DNA of 64,000 nucleotides from Acidimicrobiales bacterium (GTDB lineage: Bacteria; Actinomycetota; Acidimicrobiia; Acidimicrobiales; Bog-793), in assembly GCA_050008715.1 (NCBI GenBank), contig JBEKMC010000001.1:25280-89279 (forward strand), in the 5' to 3' direction. The position numbers and the translations under genes are program-made. Positions 8,920 through 58,348 of this stretch are shown piece after piece (position 1 is the stretch's first letter; each line of letters begins with the position of its first letter). The notes beneath the pieces are model-generated. The model searched no databases. It was given only the letters and a program-made list of their open reading frames with translations, and was not told where the DNA came from.

Positions 8920-9294
8920 TCAGAGCTCGGCGACGTGGCAGACCGCCTCCACGTTGTGGCCGTCCGGGTCACGGACGAACGTGGCGAAGTAGGCGTCGTG
9001 GTACTCGGGGAACAGTTGCGGTGAATACAGGATCTCCGCCCCGATGGCGATGGCGGCGGCATGGAAGTCCCTCACCTGCGCACGGTCGGAGGCCCTGAAG
9101 GCGAGGTGCAGCTCTCGGTCGCCGGCGCGCTCGGCAGGGATGAGCCAGAAGGATCCGCCGTCGTCCTCGAAGAAGAAACCCACCCAACCCTCCCCATCGC
9201 TTGCCACGGTCACGCCGAGCGTCACGAGGAGCGGCTCGTAGAAGCGGCGGCTCGCCTCGACGTCGGACACCTGCAAGTTGACGTGGTCGATCAT
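8920..9294 (-). CDS. VOC/glyoxalase-family protein (124 aa)
   Basis: The product reads MIDHVNLQVSDVEASRRFYEPLL...FVRDPDGHNVEAV. Confidence 0.8.
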   Translation of the reverse strand: MIDHVNLQVSDVEASRRFYEPLLVTLGVTVASDGEGWVGFFFEDDGGSFWLIPAERAGDRELHLAFRASDRAQVRDFHAAAIAIGAEILYSPQLFPEYHDAYFATFVRDPDGHNVEAVCHVAEL

Positions 9295-9308
9295 GGACCC
9301 AGTCCGCC

Positions 9309-11066
9309 TCAGCGGTCGGGCCCGAGCGAGGCCGGCGGTGACAGATGCTGACCGGACGAGAACCGGCCCCGCCCGCGGCCACCGGTACCGGCCACCCACA
9401 CCATGTCGCGGCCGCGGCGCTTGGCCTCGTACATGGCCGCGTCGGAGAGCGCCAGCACCTCGTCGGCGGAGGTGAAGTCTCTCGAGAGCGACGCCACGCC
9501 GATCGAGATCCGGATGGGCAGGTCCCCCGTGAGCTTCGTCGAGTCGAGGGAGGCGATGAGCGCCCTCAGTGCCTCGGCGATCGTCATGCCCTCGTCGAGC
9601 TCGGTGTCACCGAGGAGGACGACGAACTCCTCGCCGCCGTAGCGGGCGAGGATGTCGTGCTTGCGCAAGCGCTCCGACAGCGCCTGCCCGATCCACTGCA
9701 GCACCAGGTCGCCCTGCGAGTGGCCGTAGGTGTCGTTCACGGGCTTGAAGTGGTCGATGTCGATGAACAGGACCGTGCTCGGCTCGTCGCGCAGTCGCAG
9801 CCGCTCCATCGCCCGCGTGACGGCGATGACGAGGGCGCGCCGGTTGGCAAGGCCCGTGAGCGGGTCGGTCTGTGCCTCGACGCGTACGGCTTCGAACTCC
9901 CGGGCCTGTTCGACCGCCGTAGCACATTGGTCGGCGAAGAATTCCAGCGCCTGGATATGGGCGCGGTCGGGGAGGAGACCGTTCTTCGGCTCGTCGAGGG
10001 AGATCAAGCCGATCGTCTCACCGGAGAGACCCACGAGCGGCACGGTCAGCATGTCCTCGGCGTGCCACTGCCCGTCCTTCCAGTCCGGATCGGGCTCCGG
10101 CGTGTTGAGCTTGGCATCGAGCTCGGCGGGGATCGTGAAACGCCGGTGGTCGAAGAGGTACGACCGCGACACGACCATCTCCGGCTGCATGGCAGGAGCG
10201 AACTCGTCGAGCGAGACTGCGTTGGCGCGAAGCTCGGCGTCCTCGTCGACCGAGAGGCCGACGCTCGCCCGCATCTCCAGCTGGTGACCGCCGACGCCCA
10301 GGTAGATGGCGGCTCGCCAGAACCCTCCGGCGTTCGACATCGCGCCCGCGATGCCGCGCAGGACGTCGTCGAGACCCACGTCCCCACGCACTCGGGCGCT
10401 TGCGGCCATGAGCGCCTCGAGCTGGCCCCGCTGCGCCTCGGCGATCGCACGAGCGGCCCGCTCGGTCGCCCGGGTCCGCACGATCTCGAGCCCGACGACG
10501 GTGAACTCGGCGAGCGCTTCGAGCATGAGCGCCTGCTCGGGCGGCGGCAGCTCACCGGAGAGGGGGTCGTCCGGGTTGAGGTAGCCGATGATTCGTCCGT
10601 CCGAGTCGATGAGCGGGGCGAACAGCAACGAGCCGGGCTGCCACGTCCTCGGCGGGACGGAGACGCCCGTCGACCGGACCACCGCCCGCACGTCCTCGCG
10701 GTCGCGCACGGCGTGCCCCGGAGGGACCCAGTGGACTCCGCCGAGGGCGATGGACGAGTGGATGAGCGCCTCGAAGGCACTGTCGCTCACGACGAGGTTG
10801 CGGAAGGCTCGCTCGTCATCGAGGCGAACCCCGGCCGAGGCGGCATGGTGGAAATGGCCGTCGTCGCCCCGCAGGGCCAAGACACAGGCGGAGTACCCGA
10901 GCGCCGACCGGGCCGTGTTCACGACCATGTGGAACAAGGTCTGCTCGTCATCCATGGACGCGAGCGAGCGGGCGAGGCGGAGAACCCCGCGCAGCTGGGC
11001 GGCCGTGCGATCGAAGCCCTCGCCCGTCGGCGGAGGCATCGGTACGACATCTGGGCTAGTCGCCAT
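9309..11066 (-). CDS. GAF-GAF-GGDEF diguanylate cyclase
   Basis: The C-terminus reads DPLTGLANRRAL...FIDIDHFKPVNDTYGH...RKHDILARYGGEEFVVLL, with both the GGEEF active site and the RxxD I-site present. The N-terminus has two GAF-like regions. An alternative GTG start lies at 11105. Confidence 0.85.
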   Translation of the reverse strand: MATSPDVVPMPPPTGEGFDRTAAQLRGVLRLARSLASMDDEQTLFHMVVNTARSALGYSACVLALRGDDGHFHHAASAGVRLDDERAFRNLVVSDSAFEALIHSSIALGGVHWVPPGHAVRDREDVRAVVRSTGVSVPPRTWQPGSLLFAPLIDSDGRIIGYLNPDDPLSGELPPPEQALMLEALAEFTVVGLEIVRTRATERAARAIAEAQRGQLEALMAASARVRGDVGLDDVLRGIAGAMSNAGGFWRAAIYLGVGGHQLEMRASVGLSVDEDAELRANAVSLDEFAPAMQPEMVVSRSYLFDHRRFTIPAELDAKLNTPEPDPDWKDGQWHAEDMLTVPLVGLSGETIGLISLDEPKNGLLPDRAHIQALEFFADQCATAVEQAREFEAVRVEAQTDPLTGLANRRALVIAVTRAMERLRLRDEPSTVLFIDIDHFKPVNDTYGHSQGDLVLQWIGQALSERLRKHDILARYGGEEFVVLLGDTELDEGMTIAEALRALIASLDSTKLTGDLPIRISIGVASLSRDFTSADEVLALSDAAMYEAKRRGRDMVWVAGTGGRGRGRFSSGQHLSPPASLGPDR

Positions 11067-11258
11067 CTGGGCTAACCGCTTTCGGGCGCGGGCGGCCACC
11101 AACACGACGTCACGTCGTTGTCGTCATCTGGCGTCTGCATGGCACCCCCACGAGTGATCCGCCCAATTGTAAGCGACTCTGCACCACCCGAAATGCATGC
11201 CGGTCTGGAACAGATCCGCAGGTCGCCTTACGCGTCGCATTTTGCTAGACCACAGCTC

Positions 11259-14199: not shown

Positions 14200-15342
14200 T
14201 CAGCGCCGCTCGTTGACCTCCCAGTCGGTCTCGCGCGGTGACCCGGCGCCGTCCATCACCTGCCCGAACACGATCAGGCCTTGGCTCGTCGGTCGGGTGG
14301 ACAGCACGGCGACATCGACCCCGTCCTCTCCGATGAGATGGGCGGCATCGTTGACCACGACCATGTCACCGTCGGGCAGGTAACCGACCGCCTGACGGGG
14401 CTGCTTGCCCGGGCGCACGAGGTCGACGCGCAGTCGCTCTCCGGGCACGTGGTCAGGGGCGAGGTCCGACAGGAGCGCCCTCATGTCGATGATGCGGATG
14501 CCGATCGCGGCCTGCTGGCGGGCGACCTCGGCCGACGAAGTGACGACGCGCACACCGAGACGGTCGGCGATCGCCAGCACCTTCTCCTCGGTCATGGCCG
14601 CTGCCGGCACGTCGCCGCTCACGATCGTCACGGTGACCCCGGCTTCCCGGATGGCTTCGAGCGCCTCGAGCCCACGTCGCGCTCGCCGCGAGGCGACTGG
14701 ATCGGGTGCGTCGGCGAGCGTGCGCAGCTCGTCGGCGACAGGTTCGGGCACGAGGATCTCGGTGCCGAGCAGTCCGGCTCGCCCGAGCACGAGGAAGGCG
14801 CGGTCCATCACAGCGGACGTGTCCACCATGAGGGCGTCCGTGTTCGCCTCGCCGTCTCCGACGGCAAGGCGCCGGGAGAGGCGGGCGGCATCGGAGAGCT
14901 GCCGGCCCTTCGTCAGACCGATACGGAGGCCGAGATACCCGATGACCCAGGCGACCGATGCGGCGATCGGGTAGTCGAAGTCCTGCTTGACGAAGACGAA
15001 CAGCGGGATGCATGCCACGCAGCCCACGAGGAGGCCGAGGCCCCCGAGCAGGGCGCCGGCGAGGATCTCGGTCGCCGGCACGTCGCGCCAACGACGTGTC
15101 CAATGCACAGAGACGCGCTCCACGACGCGCCCGAAGGCGCCGCCGAACACGTAGGCGACGAGAACCCCGATCGTGGCGCCGAGGACGCGGGCGCCCGAGG
15201 TCGAGTTCTCCGTGATCGAAAGGCCGACGAGCGCTCCGACGACGACGACGATGACGCGGAGGATCTCTACGAAGACCGTGGCGTCGGATCCCCTCGTGGC
15301 GGCTCGCACAATCGAAAGCGTACTGACCGCCGGAGCCCCCAT
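14200..15342 (-). CDS. PIN/TRAM-domain membrane protein (YacL-like)
   Basis: N-terminal TM helices (VEILRVIVVVVGALVGL..., LLGGLGLLVGCVACIPLFVFV) are followed by a PIN-like segment (LMVDTSAVMDRAFLVL) and a TRAM-like C-terminus. The start is ambiguous: GTG 15375, ATG 15342 or GTG 15309. Confidence 0.7.
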   Translation of the reverse strand: MGAPAVSTLSIVRAATRGSDATVFVEILRVIVVVVGALVGLSITENSTSGARVLGATIGVLVAYVFGGAFGRVVERVSVHWTRRWRDVPATEILAGALLGGLGLLVGCVACIPLFVFVKQDFDYPIAASVAWVIGYLGLRIGLTKGRQLSDAARLSRRLAVGDGEANTDALMVDTSAVMDRAFLVLGRAGLLGTEILVPEPVADELRTLADAPDPVASRRARRGLEALEAIREAGVTVTIVSGDVPAAAMTEEKVLAIADRLGVRVVTSSAEVARQQAAIGIRIIDMRALLSDLAPDHVPGERLRVDLVRPGKQPRQAVGYLPDGDMVVVNDAAHLIGEDGVDVAVLSTRPTSQGLIVFGQVMDGAGSPRETDWEVNERR

Positions 15343-15365
15343 TGCCTCGGTACGCTCGGCGGGCC

Positions 15366-16670
15366 ATGACACCACGCGGGCGGCGGGGCACCGCCATTGC
15401 CGTCGCCATCATCCTCGCCGTCGCCGTCGTCATCGCGATCGTCGGCGTGGGCCACGCCGGCATGGGCGGCTCCGGCACGGTCACCACGACCAGCCCACCG
15501 ACCATCCCGACGACGACCAACCCCTACGCCGCCGAGGAGATCCGTACGGTGCTGGCGGCGAAGCGGGCTGTGAACGTCACACTTCCGAACGGGTCGGGTG
15601 CAGCGGCTCCGGTTCTCGGGCGGAGTCCCTACCGCTCGCCGCTCGGACGGCACGAGGTGGTGGGTTTCGTGCCGTATTACGAGCTCGGCAGCATCGACAA
15701 GATGGAGCTCGCCGACTTCACCGACGTCGTGTACTACGCCCTCGACTTGAAGCCGAACGGTCTCCTCGACGAGGCCGGCTCGTCCACCGGCTGGAGCGAC
15801 TTGCGCGACGGTGGTGCCGGGAACCTCGTGGCGTCGGGCCACACCGCTCATGACCGTGTCCTCTTGAGCGTCTTCTCGCAGAGCCCGTCGGTGCTCGCCG
15901 CTCTCGCTGCCCACCCGGGCGGCGGGAGGCGCCTCGCCGACGAGCTGGCGCCGCTGCTGTCGCAGTTCGGCTTCGACGGGATCGATCTCGACCTCGAGGG
16001 TCAGGCCGGGGCTGACCGGGCAGGTTTTGTCAGCTACATGGCAGCATTCTCGTCACGGCTGCGCACGCTCGACCCGTCGTGGACCATCATGCTGAACACG
16101 TTCCCGCAGTCGGCAGAGGACACGAGCGGTTTCTTCGACGTGCGGGCACTCGCCCGGTACGTCGACGTGATGTTCGTGATGGCCTACGACATGACGGACA
16201 ACGAGATCCCGTCCGCCAACGCCCCCCTCACCGGGGCGAGCCTCACCGTCGCCGACGCGCTTGCCTCGTATGCGGCCGCCGGCCTGGCAGGCAAGACGAT
16301 CCTCGGCACGCCGTTCTACGGCTACGACTTCCCGTCCCAAGGCTCGAGCGTGGGAGCGCAGGCTTCCGGCCAGCCGTACGCCGTCACCTACGACGCCATC
16401 CTCGCGTCCATCGTTCACGACGGTCACAAACCGCTCTGGGATTCCGTGACGGACACGCCGTATACGGTCTTCCGCCGCTCCGGGTCATGGCATCAGACGT
16501 GGTTCGACGACCCGGCCTCGATTGCCCTCAAGACGGCGCTGGCCGCCCAGTTCCATATCGCCGGGGTCGGTGCATGGGAGCTCGGCATGGTGCAACAGGC
16601 ACCACAGATGATCACGGTCCTCACGGGCGGATCTCCGGTCCTGAAACAGCCGCTCGCCACACAACCCTGA
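15366..16670 (+). CDS. membrane-anchored glycoside hydrolase family 18 protein
   Basis: It has an N-terminal TM helix (IAVAIILAVAVVIAIVGV) and the GH18 catalytic motif FDGIDLDLEG (DxxDxDxE). An alternative TTG start lies at 15342. Confidence 0.8.
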   Translation: MTPRGRRGTAIAVAIILAVAVVIAIVGVGHAGMGGSGTVTTTSPPTIPTTTNPYAAEEIRTVLAAKRAVNVTLPNGSGAAAPVLGRSPYRSPLGRHEVVGFVPYYELGSIDKMELADFTDVVYYALDLKPNGLLDEAGSSTGWSDLRDGGAGNLVASGHTAHDRVLLSVFSQSPSVLAALAAHPGGGRRLADELAPLLSQFGFDGIDLDLEGQAGADRAGFVSYMAAFSSRLRTLDPSWTIMLNTFPQSAEDTSGFFDVRALARYVDVMFVMAYDMTDNEIPSANAPLTGASLTVADALASYAAAGLAGKTILGTPFYGYDFPSQGSSVGAQASGQPYAVTYDAILASIVHDGHKPLWDSVTDTPYTVFRRSGSWHQTWFDDPASIALKTALAAQFHIAGVGAWELGMVQQAPQMITVLTGGSPVLKQPLATQP

Positions 16671-16763: not shown

Positions 16764-19700
16764 ATGACGGCCACTTACCTACGACCTTGGATGGGTGAAG
16801 AGGTGCCTACCGAGGCGTCAAGGATCGCGATACCTGGGTTCGAGCTCGTCGAGGAGCTCGGTCGCGGCGCCACCACAGCGGTCTACCGAGCGGTTCGCGA
16901 CGGCGAGGACTACGCCGTCAAGATCCAGGAGCTGAGCGGGCCGGACGACATCTCCCGGCTCACCTTCCGCCGGGAGGCCGCCATCCTCGCGGCGATCCGC
17001 CATCCCTGCCTCGGAAAGGTCTACGAGGTCGGCGAGACCAACCGGGTCTCGTACCTCGCCATGGAGCTCATCGGCGGTCGCACGCTCGCACAGGCCATCG
17101 ACGAGGAAGGGGCGCTTCCCGAAGCGCGCGTCCTGTCGCTGGCCGCTGATGTCGCCTCCGCCCTCGAGGTCGCCCACCGGGTCGGCCTCGTCCACCGCGA
17201 CGTCGCCCCCCGCAACATCGTGCTGCGATCGGACGGGCGTGCGGTCCTCATCGACTTCGGACTCGCCACCCAGATCGGCACACGCCAGCCCGAGGACGCC
17301 GTCATCGGCACCGTGCTCTACAGCGCCCCGGAACAGACCGGAATGGTGCGGCGGCCCGTGGACCGCCGCTCCGACCTCTACTCGCTCGGAGCAGTCCTGT
17401 TCGAGTGCGTCACCGGCCGCCCGCCGTTCCGAGCCGCCGACGCCGGGGAAGTCGTGCGCATGCACGCCGTGCAGGCGCCGCCCGATGCCCGCGCCCTCGA
17501 GCCGAACGTGTCGGTGCAACTGTCACGTATCCTCGCCAAGCTTCTGGCAAAGGATCCGGACGACCGTTACCAGGACGCCGGTTCGCTCCTCTCGGACCTC
17601 GAGGCCCTCCGCCGGGGCACGTTGCAGACCGAGGCACCGCTTGGTCACTCCGTATCGGATCGCCCGACGACGATGGTCACGCTCGTCGGTCGCGAGACCG
17701 AGCTGTCCGCCCTCCTCGAGACGGCGAACGAGTGCCGCACCACCGGTGTCGGCTCCGCCGTGCTGATCGAGTCGGACCCCGGCGGCGGCAAGACCCGCCT
17801 CGTGGCGGAGTTGGCCCTCATCGCCCGCGGCAACGGCATGAGCGTCCTCGAGACACACATCGGGCTCGACCATCCGGGGCCCCTCGGGCCGCTCGCGCGG
17901 GCGCTCGGCCGTTTCCTCGCCGACCTCGAGACCCGAGATCCGGAGACGCTCGCCCATCTGCGCGAGCAGATGGGGCTCGGGCGCAGCGGGGCGGCGGACT
18001 CGCTCGTCGGTCTCTCCCAGAACCTCGACCGGTTCCTGTCGGTGGGCGCGGAGCGGGCGGCCGAGCCGAGCTTCCACGAGTTCGCCGTCATCGAGGCGGC
18101 ACACCTGTTGATGTCGGTCGCCAACGCCTCGACGGGCGGGGCTCTGCTCGTCATCGACAACGCCCACCTGGCCGACGACGCCACTCATCGTGTGCTCTCG
18201 TACCTCGCGCCCGAGCTCGACCGCCTGCCCCTCATGGTCGTCCTTACGGCCCGTACCGATCCTGCGAACACGCCGGCCGTGCAACGCTTGCGCAGCGAGA
18301 TGGGCGACGCCGTCCGGCGCCGGATCGAGCTGCCGCCGCTGAGCGACGCGCAGATCGAAGGCGTCCTCTCGTGGCAGCTCGGCGGCGATGCCCTCGAGCC
18401 GAGCCTTGCCAACGAGATCACGATCCGGGCGAACGGCAACCCGTCCGCCGCCGTCGAGTACCTCAGGTCGGCGCTCGAGGCAGGCGTCCTCCGGCCCTAC
18501 TGGGGCACGTTCTCGGTGGACGCGGAGGCGCTGGCGAGCCTCGACCTTCCGATGGACGTGCGGGGCCTCGCCCTCCGCCGGCTCGACGGCCTGCGGCCGG
18601 CGACGCGCTGGCTGCTCACCGAGGCCGCCGTGATCGGCTCGAGCTTCAACGTCGACCTCTTGGCGACGATCACGCGCTGGCCGACCGGCGACGTGCACGT
18701 CGCGCTCGGGGAGGCCGCCAGGGCGCGGGTCGTAGAGGCCCACGAGAGCGAGCGGTACGTCTTCTTGGACGAAGGCGTCCGGGACGTCCTGTTGAGCTCC
18801 ATCGACGCCCAGGCCTCGCAGCAGGCCCACGAGCTGCTGGCACGAGCGTTGCAGGAGACCGGGGACAGCCGGCCGGAGATCCTCTACGACATCGCCCGCC
18901 ACTACGCCCTCGGTGAGATCGCCACCGAGCCGCGGCGTTGCTTCCAGGCCAACCATCGTGCGGCACGCCTCGCCCTGGCCGCACAGGCCGACGACGACGC
19001 CCTGGCGTTTCTCGCAACGGCGGAGGTGGTAGCTGCCGAGTACCGCTTGACGGTCGGCAGTGCCTTCGAGGCCGACTACGGCACGGCGCTCGCTCGCAGC
19101 GGCAAGGTCCCCGAGGCGCTCGCACACTACGAGAACGCCCTGCGGCTCGAACGCGAGCGCATCGGCAAGGCCCGGATCCACGAGCACGTCGCCCGCGTCT
19201 ACTTCGCCCAGACGAATGGCACCTTGGGCCTGCAGCACGCCCGCGCCGGCCTGGCGGAGCTGGGCAAGCCGCTGCCGTCGAGCAACGTGCTCGCCGTGCT
19301 GTCGACGCTGTGGAAGTGCTTCCTCGGCCTCGTGCTCGGCGTGACGAGGATCGGCTTCGGGGGAGCCAAGCGAGGAAAGCGCGAGCAGGTCCGCCTCGAA
19401 TGCCGTCTCCTCGAAGTCGCCGGCGACTCGGCCGATCTCGAGCATCGGTCGTTCCTGTCAGTCGGCGCGGCGCTTCGAGCGCTCCTGCCGGCGAACCGCC
19501 TCGGTCACTCCCGCGAGTACGTCGGCGTGTACGCCCACCTCGGTGTCGTGCTCGCGCAGATCCGGCTCGTCAATTTCGCCCGCATCGTCGCCCGTCACAC
19601 GACCCGCGTTGCCGAGCGCAGCGGCGACCAGGGAACGCTCGTGCACGCGAAGCTTCTCGAAGCGATCAGCCTCGAGTTCCAGGGCGAGTCCGTGCAATCG

Positions 19701-22169
19701 CAACAGGTGCTCGCCGAAGTGCTCCGCCACGAGACGCGCTGGCTGCAGCCAGGCGAGTACTTGAGCGGCGTCCTGGCTGCCTGCATCGGGCTCGGGATGA
19801 GAGGGCGCATCCTCGAGCAGGTCGCCTGGGTCGAGGAGGCGACCTGGCATTCCGGCGCAGCCACGCGCATCGCGGACGGGACGGTGACGGGGCTCGACTT
19901 CGTCGGGATCGGGATCTCCGGGCTCCTCGAGCAGCCGACGCTCGGATTGGAGCGGATCGGGCGGGTGCGGGAGCGTTTTGCCAGCACGCAACCGTCACGC
20001 CTCTCCGTCGCCGGCTATCAGGTGGCCCTCACGACGTTCCACTACGGGCTGAACGAGCTCGGACTGCCGTTCGAACAGTCGATCTCGGCGTTCCGCGCCC
20101 AGAAGCTGCCACCCTGGAACTGCCCCTACAACCTCTCCATGTTCTGGATCATGCAGGCCTACGGGAGGCTCTCACAGCTGCTGAACGGTCCTCCGGAAGA
20201 GCGCAAGGAGCGGGCACGGCAAGCACGGAGAGCAGTGCGGGACCTGCACATCGCCTCCCGCACGCCCTTGCTGCGGGCTCACTACCACGCGGCGCGCGGC
20301 GGTCTCCTCGTGGCGAAGGGTCGCTACAAGGCTGCTCTGCGTGCCAGCTCGAAAGGCCAGTCCCTGCTCATCGGGCTCGATGGGCCCGGCGTCGAGATGG
20401 CCATCCAAATGGTTCGCAGCCGGGCGCTCGCCGGCGCCGGCTACCAGGAGGAGTCGGACCGGTTGGCCGTGGCGGCCTCGCGGCTCGCCGAGGACCTCGG
20501 TGTCACGGGTTTCGTCCGCTGGATTCAGCCGCGGGTCATCGAGCGCCCCCGCCGCGGTCCCTTCGCTCACTCCGTGCGCGCCCAGTCCATGGGCGCAGGC
20601 CCGGTACGTGTGTCCGGCTTTCACGCCATCGGTGCCGGCGGGGTCCGCGTCGCCAGCCGAGCCGCCCGCCAGCTCGAGGCGCTCCTGCAAGTCGGAGCGG
20701 CCGCCGCCCGCGTTCTCGACCCTGAGGAGCTCGCCCGGCTCGCCCTCGACGAGACCGTGCGAATCCTCAATGCCGAGCGGGCGCTGCTGTTCCTCACGAA
20801 CGAGAACTCGGGCCTCGTGCGACCGCACCTCGGGAGGGACGCCGCCTGCAACGACTTGAAGGAGCTCACGGGATACTCCTCGACCATCGTCGACCGGGTC
20901 GTGGCCACCCGGGAGGCCATCGTCCTCACCGGGACGGAGGAGGGCGCCGCCCTCGGGTCGGAGAGCGCCGTCACCCACGGACTGCGCTCGATCCTCGTGG
21001 CGCCACTGCAGATCGAGGACCGCCTGCTCGGCGTCGTCTACCTCGACAGCCGCCTGGCAAAAGGTATCTTCACGAACGACGACGTCGAGATCCTGAGCGC
21101 CATCACCTCGAACATCGCCTTCGCCCTCGAGACGGCCCGCCTGGCCGAGATCGAGATGTCGGTCGCGAGCGAGCGGCGCCAGCGTCAGGTGGCCGAGCTG
21201 CTACGCGACTCGATGCGCTCGATCGGCCAGAGCCTGGAGCCTCGCGGGGTGCTGCGCTCCATCCTGCAGACCTCGGTCTCGGCCCTCGCCGCCGATGCCG
21301 GTGCCATCCTGCTCGCCGACGGGGAGCGCCTCGAGATCGCCGCCGCCATGGGCGGTGGCGTGTCGCTGCCGCCGGAAGGCTACGACCTCGCCAAGGCGGA
21401 CCAACCGGAGATCGCCGAGGCGCTCCGGTCCCGCAAGCCACTCGCCGTCGCCAGCGTCATCAGCGAGCGCAACTCTCCGCTGTTCGGCCTCCTCGGGCGC
21501 GCCGGTTCGTTCATCGTCGCCCCGCTCGTGGAACGCGAGCGGGCGGTTGGCGCCCTTGTGATCATCGCCCGCCGGCCGAACGCCTTCGGCCAGACCCAGA
21601 CCGAGGTCGCCGCCGCCCTCGCCGGCCAAGGTGTCGTCGCCTACGAGAACGCCCAGCTGTTCGCTCGGGTGCAGACGCTGGCGCAACGCGACGAGCTGTC
21701 CGGCGTGGCCAACCGGCGCTACTTCTTCGAGACGGCCGGCCGCACATTCCGGGACGCCCGCCAGGTCGGCACGCCGCTCTCGGCCATGATGCTCGACATC
21801 GACCACTTCAAGAACGTCAACGACCGCTACGGCCACGCCTCCGGGGACGACGTCATCAGGGTGGTCGCCCAGCGGGTCACGAAGGTGATCGGCTCGGGTG
21901 ACATCGTCGGGCGCTACGGCGGCGAGGAGTTCGCCCTCGTCGTGCAAGCTCCCCTCAAGGACGCCCATGAGCTGGCGGAACGTCTTCGCCAGGTCATCAA
22001 CGAGGCGCCGATCGCCACGGCCGCCGGGCCCGTCGAGGTGACCGTCTCGGTCGGCGTCGCCGAGATGGACATGCGGGACGCAGACCTCGGTCGCCTGCTG
22101 CAGCGGACCGACGCCGCCCTCTACGAAGCCAAGCGCGGTGGTCGCGACCAGGTCGCCCGCGCTTCGTAG
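16764..22169 (+). CDS. multidomain signalling protein: Hanks-type protein kinase - AAA_16/STAND P-loop ATPase - helical/TPR repeats - GAF - GAF - GGDEF
   Basis: The 1801-aa product has these parts. Kinase: LGRGATTAVY, YAVKIQ, HRDVAPRN, DFGLAT, YSAPEQ. P-loop: VGRETEL...LIESDPGGGKTRLVAELA. Two GAF-like segments. GGDEF: RDELSGVANRRYF...LDIDHFKNVNDRYGH...GRYGGEEFALV. Confidence 0.85.
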   Translation: MTATYLRPWMGEEVPTEASRIAIPGFELVEELGRGATTAVYRAVRDGEDYAVKIQELSGPDDISRLTFRREAAILAAIRHPCLGKVYEVGETNRVSYLAMELIGGRTLAQAIDEEGALPEARVLSLAADVASALEVAHRVGLVHRDVAPRNIVLRSDGRAVLIDFGLATQIGTRQPEDAVIGTVLYSAPEQTGMVRRPVDRRSDLYSLGAVLFECVTGRPPFRAADAGEVVRMHAVQAPPDARALEPNVSVQLSRILAKLLAKDPDDRYQDAGSLLSDLEALRRGTLQTEAPLGHSVSDRPTTMVTLVGRETELSALLETANECRTTGVGSAVLIESDPGGGKTRLVAELALIARGNGMSVLETHIGLDHPGPLGPLARALGRFLADLETRDPETLAHLREQMGLGRSGAADSLVGLSQNLDRFLSVGAERAAEPSFHEFAVIEAAHLLMSVANASTGGALLVIDNAHLADDATHRVLSYLAPELDRLPLMVVLTARTDPANTPAVQRLRSEMGDAVRRRIELPPLSDAQIEGVLSWQLGGDALEPSLANEITIRANGNPSAAVEYLRSALEAGVLRPYWGTFSVDAEALASLDLPMDVRGLALRRLDGLRPATRWLLTEAAVIGSSFNVDLLATITRWPTGDVHVALGEAARARVVEAHESERYVFLDEGVRDVLLSSIDAQASQQAHELLARALQETGDSRPEILYDIARHYALGEIATEPRRCFQANHRAARLALAAQADDDALAFLATAEVVAAEYRLTVGSAFEADYGTALARSGKVPEALAHYENALRLERERIGKARIHEHVARVYFAQTNGTLGLQHARAGLAELGKPLPSSNVLAVLSTLWKCFLGLVLGVTRIGFGGAKRGKREQVRLECRLLEVAGDSADLEHRSFLSVGAALRALLPANRLGHSREYVGVYAHLGVVLAQIRLVNFARIVARHTTRVAERSGDQGTLVHAKLLEAISLEFQGESVQSQQVLAEVLRHETRWLQPGEYLSGVLAACIGLGMRGRILEQVAWVEEATWHSGAATRIADGTVTGLDFVGIGISGLLEQPTLGLERIGRVRERFASTQPSRLSVAGYQVALTTFHYGLNELGLPFEQSISAFRAQKLPPWNCPYNLSMFWIMQAYGRLSQLLNGPPEERKERARQARRAVRDLHIASRTPLLRAHYHAARGGLLVAKGRYKAALRASSKGQSLLIGLDGPGVEMAIQMVRSRALAGAGYQEESDRLAVAASRLAEDLGVTGFVRWIQPRVIERPRRGPFAHSVRAQSMGAGPVRVSGFHAIGAGGVRVASRAARQLEALLQVGAAAARVLDPEELARLALDETVRILNAERALLFLTNENSGLVRPHLGRDAACNDLKELTGYSSTIVDRVVATREAIVLTGTEEGAALGSESAVTHGLRSILVAPLQIEDRLLGVVYLDSRLAKGIFTNDDVEILSAITSNIAFALETARLAEIEMSVASERRQRQVAELLRDSMRSIGQSLEPRGVLRSILQTSVSALAADAGAILLADGERLEIAAAMGGGVSLPPEGYDLAKADQPEIAEALRSRKPLAVASVISERNSPLFGLLGRAGSFIVAPLVERERAVGALVIIARRPNAFGQTQTEVAAALAGQGVVAYENAQLFARVQTLAQRDELSGVANRRYFFETAGRTFRDARQVGTPLSAMMLDIDHFKNVNDRYGHASGDDVIRVVAQRVTKVIGSGDIVGRYGGEEFALVVQAPLKDAHELAERLRQVINEAPIATAAGPVEVTVSVGVAEMDMRDADLGRLLQRTDAALYEAKRGGRDQVARAS

Positions 22170-41192: not shown

Positions 41193-42277
41193 ACTTCGGC
41201 CGGCGTTAGCCGGCCACGGCCCGGATTCGGGCCAGTGGCGGCGGCGGCCATGGCTGCGCACACAACGTCCCGAGCGCCCGAGAGAACGATCAGCTCGGTG
41301 TTCCTCAGATGGGACACCTCGCCGACCTTGACTCCCCCTGGGTTGTGGATGCCGATCTGGGCACCTACGTACCGCTTTGAGTCAAAGCTGAGGACCTCGA
41401 CATGTCCTCTCGAGCCGCACATGGCGGTGAGGTCGTCAAGCGTCAGCCAGGCCTCGTCGTTGTAGGACACGGCGAGGAGGCGGCTCCGGGCCGCCTCGAT
41501 GACGCTCGCCAGCGCCGTCGCCATCGAGCGGCGGCCGTTGAAGGGGCTGTGGGACGCCGGTTCCCGGCAATCGACGCGCTTGCAGGCGGTGCCGTAGTGC
41601 TGCGGGGCGTCCCACCGCACGAGCGTCTCCCAGACGTGATAATTCGAGAAGTACCGGTGCTGGTTGTAGGGCGGGTCGAGGTACGCGAAGTCGAATTCGC
41701 CGGTCAGCGACCTGGCCGTGTCGAGGGCGTCGCCCAGCAGCGCCGTGCCGTCGCCCTCGATGAGGTTCGGGACGCGTAATTCGAGCGGCTTCAGGGCGCG
41801 GGGCGCCCACTGCTTCAGGTAGGCCATCTGCAGCCCGGTGGTGGAGTCGACTCGATCCGCCGCCTCGAGCAGGCTCGACAGGAGCAGGGGATACAGCGGC
41901 GTTCCGGCGAAATCCTCGATGGCGTCCCGGATGGCGTCGATACGAGCCCCGTTGTCCGGGTGGAAGTAACGCGCCGTCTCGCAGAAGACCGCCGTGACAT
42001 AGCCCCGCACGGGCGGGCGGGCCGCCAAATAGCCCAGTACTTCGGTGAGCTCCCGGACATCGATGTTGCGGGCGTTCGTGGCGACGTACGCCTGCGCGAG
42101 GACGTGGGCGTAGGTGGCCGAGTCGACGGCGGTCACGTGGGCGCCGCTCTTCTTGAGGGCTTGGGCGACGCGGGTCGTCCCGGTGAAGAGGTCGAGCGCC
42201 CGTGTCGTCCCGACGGACTGGGCGAGGAGGGTGATGGCTGGGACGAGGCGGCGTTTTGACCCGAGATACTTGATCAC
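41183..42277 (-). CDS. Dam-type (D12 class, alpha-group) N6-adenine DNA methyltransferase
   Basis: Three motifs are present: motif X VIKYLGSKRRL, motif I ALDLFTGTTRV and motif IV AYLDPPYNQ. The GTG start overlaps the adnB stop (GTGA). Confidence 0.8.
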   Translation of the reverse strand: MIKYLGSKRRLVPAITLLAQSVGTTRALDLFTGTTRVAQALKKSGAHVTAVDSATYAHVLAQAYVATNARNIDVRELTEVLGYLAARPPVRGYVTAVFCETARYFHPDNGARIDAIRDAIEDFAGTPLYPLLLSSLLEAADRVDSTTGLQMAYLKQWAPRALKPLELRVPNLIEGDGTALLGDALDTARSLTGEFDFAYLDPPYNQHRYFSNYHVWETLVRWDAPQHYGTACKRVDCREPASHSPFNGRRSMATALASVIEAARSRLLAVSYNDEAWLTLDDLTAMCGSRGHVEVLSFDSKRYVGAQIGIHNPGGVKVGEVSHLRNTELIVLSGARDVVCAAMAAAATGPNPGRGRLTPAEVLE

Positions 42278-45200
42278 GCCGCTGCGACCGCCGCCCGGAC
42301 ACGGGCGACGGCCGCCGGGAGATCTGGCACGTCGAACTCGATCGGGCGACCCGGCGGCGCCAGGAAGACGAGCACGCACCGTCGTACGGGCATCCCCGTC
42401 GCGTCCGCCAGCGCCAGTGCGTAGGCGGCGGCCTGCAGGGAATAGCGCTCAGCGGATGCGAGCACGTCCGCCTGATCCCGTACCGAGTCGGTCTTGTAGT
42501 CGATGACGACGAGTCCACCGTCGTCTTCGAAGCAGATGTCAACGTAGCCGTCGAGCACGACCCCGCCGACCATCGTGGCGACATAGACCTCACGCCGAGG
42601 GCTGCCCGAATCGAAGGCGGCTTTCACCGTCGGGCTGGACAAGGCCGAGGCCACGAGGTCTTCCACTTCGCCCGCCCGGGCGCCGATGCCCTCCGACCCC
42701 GCCTGGGCAGCCGCAAGCTCGCGAAGCTCGGAAAGATCCGCGCCATGGGGTGTGCCGTCGGCGATCCGGCGGGCCACGTCCTGGCCGACGGACTGCAGCA
42801 CGGCGTGGACGGCCCGGCCGAGCTGCGTGCCGCCGCGCCCTCGACGGCGCCCTGCGCCACCGGCGTCGGCGCCGGGCGCCTCTTCGTCGATGGGCGCCTC
42901 CGCTCGCGTGCCGGCCTCGGCGCCCTCCCAGCCCAGCCCCGCCAGGGCCGCCACCTCGGTCGCCCGAACGCTCCTGCGCCGCCGGACCCGCTCCAGCAAC
43001 TCGATGCGCTCGCCCTGCCAGGCGTGCCAGTCCGCCGGCGACCTGGCCGTCCGCCTGGCCGTACGTCGGGCGACGACGGGGACGCTCATGGCGGTGACGT
43101 CGAACAGGGAGACCTGCGTCCCCGGGCCGAACGTCGCGCCGGCCTGGTCTGGCCGCTCCCCCGCGTCCGACACGTGGACGTCGTCGGCGGCGATCGGCTC
43201 CCACAACCCTGGGACACGCTCGAGCGCTTCAGTTGCGGCCTCGTAGAGCCGCTGGCCAAGGGTGCCGTCGCCGGCCGTCGCTGCGTGGTGGGCACAGACG
43301 ACGAGATGGTCCTGGGCGCGAGTGGCCGCCACGTAGAGCACCCTGACGGCCTCCGCCCTCTCGAGCGCCTGCTCGGCGGTTCTGAGCACGTCCACTCCGG
43401 CGGTCCGCAGATCTGCCCGCAGGTGCACCTCGGGTCGCCCGCCGGCGCCACGTAGGACCTTGCGGCCGACGCCGCGGGGGACGTCGTCACTGGTCCCGAA
43501 TCCCGCCAGCACGGCGATGGGGAACTCGAGGCCCTTCGCCGCATGGACGGTCAGGATGTGAACGACCTCTTCGTCGGGCTCCGGCAGGATCGACTCCACC
43601 GAACGAAGACCTTCGGAGAGCTGCTCCTCGACCCAGTCGGCGAACGCCCGCAGCCCTCCGCCACCCGCCTCGACGAACGCCCGCGCCCGCTCGATCAAGA
43701 AACGCACCCGCCTCCATGACTCCCGCTCCCGCGGCGAGCCGACTGACAGCTGTAAGAGCCGCCGATCACGGACGGCCGCTTCGAGGACACCCACCGGGCC
43801 GAGCTCGAAGCGCCTGGCTCGGTAGCCCCGCAGTGCCGACAACGCGCCGGCGACGACCTCGGCACCGGCGACATGGGCTTCGCCACCCTCGCCGGCCTGC
43901 AGGCGCTCCTCGACCGACCACACTCCGCCGTCACGCCGGTACCCATAGAGCTCGTCGTCCCGGCAGGCAAAGGCCGGCGAGCGCAGCGCCGCCAACAGCG
44001 CCACCCGGTCAGCCGGGTCGTCGATCGCCCGGCACAGGGCGAGGAGGTCGCGCACCTCCTGGCTCCGGTAGATGAGCGACGCGCTCTCGACCCTGTAGCC
44101 GATCCCGTGGGCGTCGAGCGCCGCCTCGAGCTCGGCAAGGCCTGTCCTGCGGGGCACCAGAATGGCGACGTCGCTCAGCCGGGCCGGCCGGCGGGCGTCA
44201 TCGTCGCCGACGAGCCAGCCCTCGGTGTTCACGGCCCGGTCGATGGCCATGGCGCAGGCCTCAGACTCGACGACGCGCTGGTCGTGCCGCTTGAGAGAGC
44301 CGTCCAGCTCCCCCCCGGCGATCCGGACCGGCACCCGGTGCCCCGTAGACGGCCGCACCGGCTCGAGTCGCGAGTAGCTGTCTCCCATGAGCGACGTGAA
44401 GCACTCGTTGGCAAACTCGAGGATGCCGGGCACGGATCGGAAATTCGACGTCAACGCGACAGGACCTCCTTCGGCGAGACGTGCCCGGGCGACTTCGTAG
44501 GCAGCCAGGTCGGCTCCGCGGAAGCGGTAGATCGACTGCTTCGGGTCGCCGACGAAGAACAACCGGCCAGCGTCCTTGCCACCGATGAGCTCGGCGATCT
44601 CGAGCTGCAGCGGGTCGGTGTCCTGGAACTCGTCGATCAGCAGGTATCTGAGCTTGCCCCGCACCCGCGCGAGCACACCCGGGTTCTCGGCCAGCAGATC
44701 GCGGGCAAGCACGAGCAGATCGTGGAACACAAGCGTTCCCGCGGCACGACGAGCGGCCGCCGCCTCAAGGGCCACGACGTCGAACGTGGCTACGAGCGCC
44801 GGCAGCACGGCGTCGGCAACCTCCGCGACGGCCCTCGACCGGGCCTCCCGGGCATCGCTGAGATGGCCGCGCACTTCGTCGACGTCACATGCCCAAGCGC
44901 CCTTCTGGCCGGCGTTCCCGATCCGCAGCGACGGCTGTTGTGCCGCCAGCACGGCAAGGCGCGGATCACCAGCCACTCCGCCGCCGGCGGCGCGACCGCC
45001 CGCCGCGAAGTCCTCGTCCTCGTCCTCGCCCTCGTCCGAGCCGGACAAAAGAACCTGGAGATCCCTCGCCTCGCGCAGCCGCAGCAAGAGGACGTCGCCG
45101 GGATCGGTGCAGTGCGGTTCGAGGGCGAGAGCCCCCTCGAGGCTGGCGAGGACGTCGGCCGTGCCCCGATCGACGGCGGCCGCCACGATCGCCAAGACGG

Positions 45201-45795
45201 CGGGCACATCGGGACCGGCGGTTGCGCACCGGTCCCACTCCTCACTCACCTCTTTAGCCAGGTCTTGCAAGTGGGCCGGCGTGACCCCCACCACGGAAGC
45301 AACCCCGAAGAGCTGGCGCATACGCTCGTCCTCGCCGAGACGATCGAGCACGGCAGACCAGTGCTCACGCCAGGCGAGGCTCTGGCGCACCTCGTCGAGA
45401 ATCTCGATCCGTGGCGGCAGGCCTGCCTCGATGGGATGCTCGGCGAGCAGCCGCTGGCAGAAGCCGTGGATCGTCGAGATCGCCGCCTCGTCCAGATGAT
45501 CGAGCGCGTCCTGTACCCGGCGTCGCTCCGCTCCGTCCCGGCCCCGGTTGGCGAGACTCGTCAGCTCCGACCGCACCCGCACTTTGAGCTCCAGCGCCGC
45601 TGCCTCGGTGAAGGTGATGGCGGCGAGGTCCTCGAGCCCACACGCGCCCGACCTCAACAGCTGCACGATCCGCGACACGAGCGCGGTCGTCTTGCCCGAA
45701 CCCGCTCCCGCTTCCACGAACAGCGTCGAGTCCAGGCGGTACTCGATCGTGTGCCTCGCGGCAGAATCGGCCAGGCGCCGCGCCGAGACGCTCAT
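42274..45795 (-). CDS. adnB: UvrD-type helicase / RecB-type nuclease subunit (AdnB/AddA-like)
   Basis: The 1173-aa product has Walker A (EAGAGSGKTTALVSRIV), motif II (YLLIDEFQDTDPLQ) and a C-terminal PD-(D/E)XK nuclease (GYVDICFEDDGGLVVIDYKTD). Confidence 0.85.
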   Translation of the reverse strand: MSVSARRLADSAARHTIEYRLDSTLFVEAGAGSGKTTALVSRIVQLLRSGACGLEDLAAITFTEAAALELKVRVRSELTSLANRGRDGAERRRVQDALDHLDEAAISTIHGFCQRLLAEHPIEAGLPPRIEILDEVRQSLAWREHWSAVLDRLGEDERMRQLFGVASVVGVTPAHLQDLAKEVSEEWDRCATAGPDVPAVLAIVAAAVDRGTADVLASLEGALALEPHCTDPGDVLLLRLREARDLQVLLSGSDEGEDEDEDFAAGGRAAGGGVAGDPRLAVLAAQQPSLRIGNAGQKGAWACDVDEVRGHLSDAREARSRAVAEVADAVLPALVATFDVVALEAAAARRAAGTLVFHDLLVLARDLLAENPGVLARVRGKLRYLLIDEFQDTDPLQLEIAELIGGKDAGRLFFVGDPKQSIYRFRGADLAAYEVARARLAEGGPVALTSNFRSVPGILEFANECFTSLMGDSYSRLEPVRPSTGHRVPVRIAGGELDGSLKRHDQRVVESEACAMAIDRAVNTEGWLVGDDDARRPARLSDVAILVPRRTGLAELEAALDAHGIGYRVESASLIYRSQEVRDLLALCRAIDDPADRVALLAALRSPAFACRDDELYGYRRDGGVWSVEERLQAGEGGEAHVAGAEVVAGALSALRGYRARRFELGPVGVLEAAVRDRRLLQLSVGSPRERESWRRVRFLIERARAFVEAGGGGLRAFADWVEEQLSEGLRSVESILPEPDEEVVHILTVHAAKGLEFPIAVLAGFGTSDDVPRGVGRKVLRGAGGRPEVHLRADLRTAGVDVLRTAEQALERAEAVRVLYVAATRAQDHLVVCAHHAATAGDGTLGQRLYEAATEALERVPGLWEPIAADDVHVSDAGERPDQAGATFGPGTQVSLFDVTAMSVPVVARRTARRTARSPADWHAWQGERIELLERVRRRRSVRATEVAALAGLGWEGAEAGTRAEAPIDEEAPGADAGGAGRRRGRGGTQLGRAVHAVLQSVGQDVARRIADGTPHGADLSELRELAAAQAGSEGIGARAGEVEDLVASALSSPTVKAAFDSGSPRREVYVATMVGGVVLDGYVDICFEDDGGLVVIDYKTDSVRDQADVLASAERYSLQAAAYALALADATGMPVRRCVLVFLAPPGRPIEFDVPDLPAAVARVRAAVAAA

Positions 45796-48700: not shown

Positions 48701-48959
48701 CGCCGGCGGCGCCGAGCTGCTGGACCAGTGCAGCGAGCGGGGCGAAGCGAACGGCGGCGAATGCCCCGCGTTCGACGAGGCGCCGCCGCAGTGACAATCC
48801 GACGATCGGGCTGCGAACGACAACCCAGACCGGGGCCAGGCGGTCGGCGACATGCACCCGTTGCAGCTCGTCCACGAGCGCCGCCTCCGCCGCCACGCCT
48901 GGGATGACCCGCTCGATCCGACCTGCCATTGGGACGATGGTACGAGAGGGGTGTGTCAA
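45792..48959 (-). CDS. adnA: helicase-nuclease partner subunit (AdnA/AddB-like) with Fe-S cysteine cluster
   Basis: The 1055-aa product has a nuclease motif (GRIDRVDVTADGRLVVVDYKSGR) and cysteines at FAACPFRFF and CQYCDFDALC. Its stop overlaps the adnB start. The start is TTG 48959 or ATG 48929. Confidence 0.75.
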   Translation of the reverse strand: MTHPSRTIVPMAGRIERVIPGVAAEAALVDELQRVHVADRLAPVWVVVRSPIVGLSLRRRLVERGAFAAVRFAPLAALVQQLGAAGAARGGRRPLTPVAVRTAARVALGVVPGVLAPVAGHEATEESLATTYRDLRRASAVELDRLASTSARAGDVVALVRAMRQLLEAGYHDSDDLLRAAMDQLAAGGGADVSELGNVVLYLPDPLGPAEAGLLVSLARRLELLVLAGVTGDELADRAIHRFLAALADGFGGVSRGEIEVVGTAAAAAGAGATGLGAPTVGSGADAVRFTEFSSSPDDDVEVREAVRRLIAHAEDGGDLGRCVVTFPDGARAPELHRRIAEQLAVAGVPHSGGDRQLLRDTPHARLLIGLVALAMPALPGQELDRGHVIDWLSSGPIRSDKGLARHLASVTAEGAVPVGAWDRCSRAAGVLSGISQWRDRLRTHIARLQRDPAAEPTPAAQVAADLLEFVERLHALVSAAARADSWAALRRWTDDALEELLEPGEQRTTIADAVSDLDALDALEPLGRFSASERLRRLAVALDVALDRPAGDRGRFGAGPAVGSLRAVAGTSSDLLIVLGCREGDLPAPRRDDPLLPRSERDQVASLAEREQADEAGRRHLLWALSASARSSASFARIDVRVGRAAYPSRWAAELFDGRLTDVPSFAGSIRQVVDGMAASDAADFELASLLAISSSEAPSFLELLDGDYRRRRQAALDRRAGGLNPYAGYVPAAGLAEDAWVHPLSATGLETFAACPFRFFVDRKLGVSKLEQPERLVVIDARERGTLMHAVLEGFFEENGTVVPVTVIDERSRARLRDLANTAFEELERSGKTGKAIFWDTERARILRDLERYVARDVADSVAAGRVPMSVELDFGGEGRPVVAHAAGRDVLFRGRIDRVDVTADGRLVVVDYKSGRSGNFQDILTDPLGRGRHLQLPIYAKAAVEVLGRELTLRQPARAEYRFVQAVAGYAVIPVELNEEVAAALHDVLETLVSTIDAGCFPPHPGRLLQSQYDNCQYCDFDALCTTDRAELWERASNDHEMKAFTELVGPI

Positions 48960-58305: not shown

Positions 58306-58348
58306 ATCGGCCAAAGCCCACTCCGAGGCGACCTGACATACTCCCGGG

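Follow-up and report, generated by a model that had tools for sequence, protein, structure and literature searches.

We analysed a 64,000-nucleotide stretch of DNA (the window) from an Acidimicrobiales bacterium (contig JBEKMC010000001.1), centring on a single large gene on its forward strand (16764..22169; all coordinates are those of the window) which encodes a protein of 1801 amino acids joining a kinase, an NTPase switch and a diguanylate cyclase. The ORF listing and its translation gave an uninterrupted, ATG-initiated open reading frame (ORF) with zero internal stops. The G+C content at third codon positions (GC3) is 0.89, in line with the genes of this ~70 % GC window, and the base composition of the gene is native to it. 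Intact orthologs of 1766-1889 amino acids are present in at least 35 protein clusters and in 11 species-level genomes with conserved synteny, which together with the GC3 value identifies 16764..22169 as a genuine gene and not a chance ORF. The initial annotation of this locus had allowed for an interrupted frame; the ORF is intact in all orthologs. Two starts can be considered. The ATG at 16764 follows a Shine-Dalgarno-like AAGGTGG motif at a distance of four bases, and the ATG at 16791 (codon M10) corresponds to the start chosen by gene callers in homolog P0001, which is 98 % identical. The kinase domain begins after either of them and no domain is affected by the choice. A scan for promoters and terminators around the gene returned nothing relevant above shuffled expectation.

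The domain order is Hanks-type kinase, STAND NTPase (AAA_16), a helical solenoid of ~600 amino acids resembling tetratricopeptide repeats (TPR), two GAF domains and a GGDEF domain. This is the order proposed in the initial annotation and it holds in Pfam, in an NCBIfam scan that agrees with the Pfam domains, and in structure predictions, with firm domain-scan support for the kinase (E 8e-44) and GGDEF (E 1e-41) assignments at either end. Identification as a TOMM kinase/cyclase fusion (TIGR03903) was rejected, since the match scored 193 bits where 705.75 are required and was confined to the kinase region.

The same architecture had been singled out as remarkable, with the suggestion that it be surveyed across genomes. 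That distinction does not stand. A full-length search recovered more than 120 proteins of 1720-1890 amino acids with the same Pfam set from Acidimicrobiales and Micromonosporaceae, and as early as 2005 a 'Kinase + 6 TPR + GGDEF' protein of 1826 amino acids was listed, in silico, in a survey of kinase architectures in prokaryotes (PMC1262709). The nearest ~35 clusters are from Acidimicrobiales with 59-98 % identity, the closest relatives coming from Acidimicrobiales and Acidimicrobiaceae metagenome-assembled genomes of soils and peat. A Micromonosporaceae group (Actinoplanes, Planosporangium, Pilimelia, Spirilliplanes) shows 35-40 % identity over 98-100 % of the query, and weaker full-length matches were found in Cyanobacteria and Proteobacteria. 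Family members with a named source are mostly annotated 'diguanylate cyclase'. The architecture is thus already known as that of a large, widespread and unstudied family.

The catalytic loop of the kinase domain

The kinase domain (residues 26-290, 16839..17633) matches Pfam Pkinase (PF00069) over residues 26-270 with 150.4 bits against a cut-off of 31.7. Its closest NCBIfam kinase model is PknB-like and its nearest structure in the PDB is PknB (E 4e-45), with StkP, PknE and PknA also matched. The kinase catalytic set is present (Lys53, Glu71, Asp146, Asn151, Asp164 and the APE of residues 188-190), and Lys53, Glu71, Asp146, Asn151 and the DFG motif are invariant in the 36 sequences of the clade of close relatives. 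The catalytic loop reads HRDVAPRN (residues 144-151, 17193..17216), exactly as and where it was first reported. The Lys that typifies Ser/Thr kinases two residues after the catalytic Asp (D+2, HRDxKxxN) is absent; Ala148 occupies D+2 and an Arg, Arg150, stands at D+4.

Motifs extracted from 120 homologs placed this loop in its phylogenetic setting. All 35 close relatives carry HRDV[A/S/G]PRN, with 22 Ala, 10 Ser and 3 Gly at D+2, and the motif was confirmed in 11 of 11 genome orthologs; Arg150 is therefore invariant in the clade and D+2 limited to small residues. Two proteins at ~50 % identity (P0036 and P0037) have HRD[IV]KPRN, with both the Lys and the Arg, and beyond these nearly all homologs read HRDxKPxN, mostly K-P-D. 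Neighbour-joining analysis of 129 full-length proteins recovered the x-P-R proteins as a monophyletic clade, with the K-P-R pair and P0038 (T-P-D) branching directly outside it. The path probably ran from acquisition of Arg at D+4 to replacement of the D+2 Lys by a small residue.

Ratios of nonsynonymous to synonymous substitution (dN/dS), estimated by the Nei-Gojobori method over seven ortholog pairs, were 0.06-0.11 for the kinase, 0.05-0.115 for GGDEF, 0.08-0.22 for the NTPase, 0.06-0.16 for the helical region and 0.02-0.07 for the first GAF domain. Every module is under purifying selection. The kinase is as low as the cyclase domain, indicating that purifying selection on the two is equally strong, which is not the pattern of a decaying domain. 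By these comparisons the x-P-R loop is a real, selection-maintained and lineage-specific feature of an Acidimicrobiales clade.

To place the loop among kinases at large we utilized an exhaustive HMMER search with the kinase domain, which found 1.1 million representative kinases, and read 223 catalytic loops from the best 150 of the 1.1 million. These comprise 195 with Lys at D+2 and no Arg at D+4, four K-x-R, eight with Arg at D+2, one T-P-K, 13 with neither Lys nor a compensating base, and just two in which a non-Lys residue is combined with Arg at D+4. The initial annotation had left open that A-x-R loops might be common in bacterial kinases; at 2/223 they are not, and both of these read HRDVTPRN and lie in the first domain of tandem kinases. 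A word-index search with a 67-residue fragment centred on the loop gave just five short candidates and was uninformative.

We also scanned metagenome contigs at the DNA level for H-R-D-[LIVMF]-A-[PA]-R-N, which provides examples and not frequencies. The matches listed are mostly eukaryotic tyrosine kinases (HRDLAARN, low GC, exon-sized ORFs, P..W.APE), confirming what the motif usually marks. Two bacterial HRDVAPRN kinases were among the matches listed, of which L147 is a PASTA kinase of the PknB type and L160 an unrelated membrane kinase. Canonical motifs (HRD[IV]KPAN with GT in the P+1 loop) are found in 91 of 100 relatives of the PASTA kinase in which both motifs are readable. Three clusters 84-90 % identical to it (P0270-P0272) read HRDV[A/S]PRN and form with it a small PknB/Stk1-type subclade in which the P+1 Thr is also replaced, GT becoming GG or SG; relatives at ~52 % identity are canonical. 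The [A/S]-P-R loop is thus rare (of the order of one percent of near relatives), recurrent, and fixed in lineages. No description of it was found in the literature searched, and neither A-x-R loops nor GGDEF fusions were found in the main text of the bSTK atlas preprint.

Other loop variants were encountered in the same searches. Four PASTA kinases (P0283, P0285, P0290 and P0296) have Arg at D+2 (HRDIRPAN), the arrangement of Src-type HRDLRAAN, and in three of them the P+1 Thr is altered as well (GP, GS, GS). In PASTA kinases the P+1 residue thus seems to change together with the base of the catalytic loop. Six proteins (P0210, P0211, P0215, P0217, P0256 and P0261) have an N-terminal kinase domain with HRDISPDN, having neither Lys at D+2 nor Arg at D+4; a scan of one of them, P0210, showed tandem kinase domains, the second of which fits the profile better. 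Such HRDISPDN domains may be regulatory and pseudokinase-like.

The resemblance of the A-x-R loop to the HRDLAARN of eukaryotic protein tyrosine kinases (PTKs), pointed out when the loop was first noticed, is exact in spacing, with a small residue at D+2 and Arg at D+4; A-P-R differs from the PTK A-A-R in having Pro at D+3. The AAR motif is considered unique to PTKs and absent even from tyrosine kinase-like kinases, its Arg contacting the hydroxyl of the substrate tyrosine, and it serves as a hallmark setting eukaryotic tyrosine kinases apart from all Ser/Thr kinases (PMC4771162). The tyrosine specificity which this likeness implies found no second line of evidence. In the activation segment (DFG to APE, residues 164-190, 17253..17333) the P+1 loop is of the Ser/Thr type, GTVLYSAPE, with Thr183 invariant, GT..Y.APE throughout the clade and no PTK-type P-[IV]-[KR]-W-x-APE. 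The P+1 Ser/Thr residue has been named a major determinant of Ser/Thr versus Tyr specificity in a review which attributes bacterial tyrosine phosphorylation mostly to non-Hanks kinases (PMC6213207). Thr169 and Thr173 of the activation loop are conserved and no tyrosine has been gained; Tyr186 of the P+1 loop is invariant, and equally conserved in relatives with the Lys loop. The score margin between the Pkinase and PK_Tyr_Ser-Thr profiles is equal in the clade and in canonical-loop relatives, and contrasting clade with outgroup revealed no further PTK-like substitution in the kinase domain. On this evidence the tyrosine-kinase geometry has been reached convergently, and the resemblance is limited to the loop. 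The archaeal tyrosine kinase Sut1 (preprint) was considered as a guide to the loop determinants and set aside as irrelevant, not being a Hanks kinase.

Switch and cyclase modules and their genomic setting

Downstream of the kinase, Pfam AAA_16 matches residues 307-493 (E 9e-15) within a STAND nucleotide-binding oligomerisation domain (NOD; ~residues 305-670, 17676..18773). The P-loop DPGGGKT that led to the STAND assignment is present as the Walker A motif (residues 338-344, 17775..17795); GGGKT (340-344) is intact, and the first Gly of GxxGxGK is replaced by Asp338, Asp or Glu across the clade. Walker B reads LLVID-N (residues 461-466, 18144..18161), retaining Asp465 and having Asn466 as the second acid; this position is Asn clade-wide, D-G in the K-P-R pair and D-D in distant relatives. 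A sensor-1-like VVLTAR follows at residues 492-497. In the general STAND scheme a NOD, arm and repeat sensor carry effectors at either end and ATP hydrolysis serves as the reset, with MalT and the kinase PknK named as one bacterial subfamily (PMC4381067). Since hydrolysis resets STAND switches, loss of the second acid suggests that the clade NTPase is a hydrolysis-impaired switch with a slow-hydrolysing, long-lived state.

Structure prediction, which the initial annotation had proposed as a check, gave a STAND NOD followed by a TPR-like solenoid. The AlphaFold model of residues 295-960 (mean predicted local distance difference test, pLDDT, 84.8; predicted template modelling score 0.79) opens with an alpha/beta core bearing the P-loop, continues through a helical domain and a winged-helix-like region and ends in helix pairs. 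In a Foldseek search of the PDB the best match was 6MFV, a crystallised STAND protein whose sensor is of the TPR type (E 5e-11, 678 columns), the next is 8BOB chain C (E 2e-7), annotated with negative regulation of the maltose system and which we take to be MalT, and ORC/Cdc6, RuvB and NLR ATPases come after these. A second model, built on a 7-row alignment and covering residues 930-1310 (pLDDT 76.9), shows helix hairpins to ~1255 and then a disordered linker of ~40 residues (~1257-1296, 20532..20651, predicted from pLDDT below 50). It resembles MalT domain III (1HZ4), Rap/NprR and APC/C TPR subunits with weak scores (E ~8e-3, TM 0.5-0.6). Taken together the models place helix-hairpin solenoids over ~670-1255, the putative sensor (~671-1255, 18774..20528).

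The TPR designation given initially to this region stands in part. One short stretch is detectable in sequence, as a sub-threshold Pfam TPR match (residues 773-797, E 0.0097) which recurs near threshold at the homologous site in relatives, and a family profile of 17 sequences matches consensus TPR proteins over residues ~765-830. The remainder is a TPR/SUPR-like solenoid by fold only, and a phmmer search of the PDB with the single sequence 291-1300 returned no match. The predicted folds support a STAND protein with a long TPR-like sensor.

Within the solenoid lies a hydrophobic helix, VLAVLSTLWKCFLGLVLGV (residues 842-860, 19287-19343, Kyte-Doolittle mean 2.08), followed by TRIGFG and conserved family-wide. 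The helix may be buried in the core of the fold or serve in membrane association. A transmembrane segment was judged unlikely, because both flanking halves of the protein require cytoplasmic nucleotides and AlphaFold places the helix inside the solenoid.

Pfam GAF, GAF_2 and GAF_3 models identified two stretches, the best at residues 1318-1456 (GAF1, 20715..21131). The boundaries of the second (GAF2, ~1486-1628, 21219..21647) are approximate and were drawn with the help of alignment to the second GAF of a neighbouring cyclase. GAF1 is the most constrained part of the protein, above either catalytic domain, with 89 % mean ortholog identity, which points to a specific conserved ligand.

The C-terminal GGDEF domain (residues 1640-1796, 21681..22151) matches PF00990 and, with 155 bits against a cut-off of 37, TIGR00254 (E 1e-45). 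All active-site motifs are canonical, comprising DIDHFKNVNDRYGHASGD, GGEEF (residues 1719-1723, 21918-21932) and EAKRGGRD, and the nearest PDB entries (PleD, WspR, DosC and DgcZ) are active cyclases. The intact GGEEF noted at the outset is therefore present, as is the unusual inhibitory site (I-site), where GSGD takes the place of RxxD (residues 1710-1713, 21891..21902) and is separated from GGEEF by IVGRY. G[SA]xD occupies the I-site in every clade member, and the K-P-R outgroup and most distant relatives keep RxxD. RxxD is frequent in GGDEF cyclases without being obligatory. With the primary I-site Arg absent, product feedback has probably been lost. An Actinoplanes subclade has lost the I-site Arg independently with a canonical kinase loop, so the I-site and kinase-loop traits are not mechanistically tied.

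The gene lies in a conserved neighbourhood, which runs methylmalonyl-CoA mutase (MCM), a small conserved ORF (8920-9399), a GAF-GAF-GGDEF cyclase, PntA, PntB, a conserved unknown gene, a GH18 glycosidase, the 1801-amino acid gene, a GNAT acetyltransferase, LepA and DnaJ. This neighbourhood recurs in 11 species-level genomes, making the gene a vertically inherited core gene outside any mobile or defence island. Directly next to it there is neither a phosphatase nor an FHA protein or PilZ partner, the conserved neighbourhood contains no tyrosine phosphatase or other phosphotyrosine component, and there is no second kinase in the window.

The neighbouring cyclase (9309-11105, reverse strand, 598 amino acids) reads RKHD-ILARY-GGEEF, in agreement with the initial annotation of an RKHD retained there. 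With the C-terminal half of the 1801-amino acid protein it shares 31 % identity. Nine ortholog loci are long enough to show its position, and in 7 of these it is kept, four genes upstream of the large gene; it is possibly a paralog of the C-terminal module. In some orthologous loci 1-3.5 kb of extra DNA separates the large gene from its GH18 or GNAT neighbour (L011 6490-10000, L001 15388-17264, L004 15367-16533), so it is not obligatorily co-transcribed with GH18. A 391-amino acid ORF on the reverse strand (14200-15375) has good coding statistics and no Pfam match; it is syntenic with 62-90 % identity in Acidimicrobiales loci reaching that far.

The remaining window is housekeeping in character, including an FtsX permease, an AT3-SGNH acyltransferase and a Rieske protein. 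Two adjacent large ORFs on the reverse strand (42274-48959) resemble an AddAB/AdnAB-type helicase-nuclease pair, one with UvrD-helicase and PD-(D/E)XK domains (1173 amino acids) and one with PD-(D/E)XK (1055 amino acids). A histidine-utilisation (hut) cluster on the forward strand (56845-61611) comprises formiminotransferase-cyclodeaminase, a histidine ammonia-lyase-type aromatic lyase and urocanase.

Interpretation and comparison with known systems

We favour, with a probability of roughly 0.6, a cytoplasmic and vertically inherited Acidimicrobiales STAND protein, one of a large actinobacterial family, in which a NOD/sensor switch would drive the GGDEF domain and the kinase is likely an active Ser/Thr type working through Arg150. 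A MalT/PknK-type NOD with its TPR-like sensor would constitute a nucleotide-dependent oligomerisation switch, to which both the N-terminal Hanks kinase and the C-terminal GAF-GAF-GGDEF module would be attached. Oligomerisation, further gated by a GAF ligand, would bring the GGDEF domains into a dimeric arrangement and so lead to synthesis of cyclic di-GMP (c-di-GMP). Output would then be set by the upstream switch and not limited by product feedback, the I-site Arg being absent. The kinase would either autophosphorylate to tune the switch or phosphorylate separate substrates as a second output.

Catalytic activity of the kinase is most likely, given the invariant catalytic residues, an invariant Arg150 combined with a restricted D+2, and the low dN/dS. 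Independent fixation of [A/S]-P-R in the PASTA-kinase subclade and occurrence of T-P-R in tandem kinases speak for the viability of such loops. By analogy with PTKs and from the pattern of conservation, we infer that Arg150 stands in electrostatically for the missing D+2 Lys, the small D+2 residue making room for it. The unchanged P+1 loop and the conserved activation-loop threonines suggest that this activity is most likely Ser/Thr autophosphorylation and substrate phosphorylation, although specificity may be relaxed or dual.

Several points weigh against this interpretation. Loss of the D+2 Lys strongly impairs catalysis in canonical kinases, and P0038 (T-P-D) and P0045 (T-P-A) have lost it without a compensating base; the family may therefore get by with a weakly active kinase. 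In the neighbour-joining tree the branching among the clade, the K-P-R pair and P0038 is a polytomy, so that the order of loop changes is suggested and not proven. The kinase may act on the cyclase as an input or provide an output in parallel with it. The clade NTPase may bind nucleotide and hardly hydrolyse it, which would change the model of the switch. No functional study of any family member was found in the literature searched.

A clearly less probable alternative, which nevertheless has to be taken seriously, is that the domain is a pseudokinase or low-activity nucleotide-binding module, its kinase fold serving as an ATP-sensing or scaffolding regulator of the STAND-cyclase machine. The missing canonical Lys and its uncompensated loss in P0038 and P0045 would fit such a role, as would the 13 of 223 loops (best 150 of 1.1 million) in the same state, HRDISPDN among them. 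The degenerate Walker B of the clade hints at a general shift from catalysis to binding, and bacterial pseudokinase families are common according to the bSTK atlas preprint. A pseudokinase in the sense of that preprint lacks the VAIK Lys, the HRD Asp or the DFG Asp, and all three are invariant here, likewise Glu71 and Asn151. An invariant Arg150 with only small residues at D+2 is what would be expected of functional replacement and not of decay, the kinase dN/dS is as low as that of the cyclase domain, and the same loop solution was fixed independently in the PASTA-kinase subclade.

We consider it unlikely that the protein contains a convergent bacterial tyrosine or dual-specificity kinase, in which [A/S/G]-P-R would rebuild the substrate pocket of PTKs with Arg150 hydrogen-bonding the tyrosine hydroxyl, coupling phosphotyrosine to c-di-GMP synthesis. 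The loop has the exact spacing of a motif described as unique to PTKs (PMC4771162), that motif is a good PTK marker among the metagenome matches listed, and the loop is strictly conserved under purifying selection. Tyr186 is invariant, and a P+1-loop Tyr is an autophosphorylation site in PKD (PMC6099456). Set against this, Thr183 is kept (GT..Y.APE) in place of the PTK P..W.APE, no other kinase-domain position has shifted toward PTK residues, and the nearest structures and profiles are of Ser/Thr kinases (PknB, StkP, PknA), with the Pkinase versus PK_Tyr margin seen in canonical-loop relatives. The activation-loop acceptors are Thr with no new Tyr, the conservation of Tyr186 is shared with the Lys-loop relatives, and the conserved neighbourhood holds no phosphotyrosine component. 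About equally doubtful is the broader proposal that [A/S/G]-P-R marks bacterial Hanks kinases which have become tyrosine- or dual-specific convergently, through the loop solution of metazoan receptor kinases. The K-P-R proteins would then be living intermediates and phosphotyrosine signalling would be wired to feedback-free c-di-GMP synthesis, and its examples would be the Acidimicrobiales STAND-cyclase clade and, independently, the PASTA-kinase subclade. An anti-phage or conflict STAND system (Avs-like, or kinase-based as in PD-T4-6 and Mad6) with a nucleotide-second-messenger output is highly improbable and was rejected: STAND NTPases with effector domains are frequent in defence systems and PADLOC gave strong matches to the PD-T4-6 and Mad6 models, but these cover the generic kinase domain only (residues ~20-300), no defence STAND model matches, the base composition is native, and the gene is a syntenic core gene with the same housekeeping neighbours (MCM, PntAB, GH18, GNAT, LepA, DnaJ) in 11 species-level genomes.

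Preferring the Ser/Thr STAND-cyclase reading, we regard the loop as a well-posed biochemical question rather than a demonstrated novelty; what is new is the loop variant, the architecture being already known. The lineage has a PTK-like relocation of the base under strong purifying selection with K-P-R proteins branching just outside it, and the clade therefore amounts to a natural experiment on how relocation affects activity and specificity without a change in the P+1 loop. PASTA kinases provide a second lineage, in which both the loop and the P+1 residue have changed. Should the kinase prove to be an ordinary Ser/Thr enzyme, A-x-R on its own would be no basis for annotating prokaryotic or metagenomic sequences as tyrosine kinases. 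Three derived features come together in the clade protein: the kinase base is relocated, Walker B is without its second acid and the cyclase is without its I-site Arg. This makes it a useful model for STAND control of second-messenger synthesis.

Each part of the protein has a better-known counterpart. Receptor-type PTKs of eukaryotes, such as the insulin receptor kinase (HRDLAARN), share Ala at D+2 and Arg at D+4; their P..W.APE P+1 loop, overall sequence affinity and other PTK-specific core residues are not shared. The C-terminal domain has its GGEEF site and GTP/Mg-binding motifs in common with cyclases of the PleD and WspR type, whose solved structures it matches at E 1e-24 to 1e-27. PleD and WspR have an RxxD inhibitory site and receiver-domain inputs, whereas the 1801-amino acid protein has GSGD and receives its inputs through a STAND switch and GAF domains. 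MalT and the archaeal STAND-TPR protein 6MFV are the best fold matches and share the logic of NOD, arm and TPR-like sensor, with sequence identity of merely 14-17 %. The MalT effector is a C-terminal LuxR-type DNA-binding domain, in contrast to the kinase and cyclase effectors found here, and Walker B is D-N in the clade and not D-D.

The kinase PknK of M. tuberculosis is, going by its description, similar in having an N-terminal Hanks kinase followed by an AAA_16/MalT-type NOD and a helical repeat sensor; to our knowledge its catalytic loop is canonical and it has no GAF or GGDEF output. It has been listed as 'Kinase + MalT-like' (PMC1262709) and as a STAND protein (PMC4381067). The 1826-amino acid protein of Clostridium thermocellum (Krupa and Srinivasan 2005), known from its description in an in silico catalogue, matches in size, N-terminal Hanks kinase, long TPR region and C-terminal GGDEF, with neither AAA_16 nor GAF reported for it. 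The Micromonosporaceae homologs have an identical Pfam architecture at 1720-1830 amino acids and differ from the Acidimicrobiales clade in their HRDxKPxN loop, GxxGxGK[ST] Walker A, D-D Walker B and mostly RxxD I-site.

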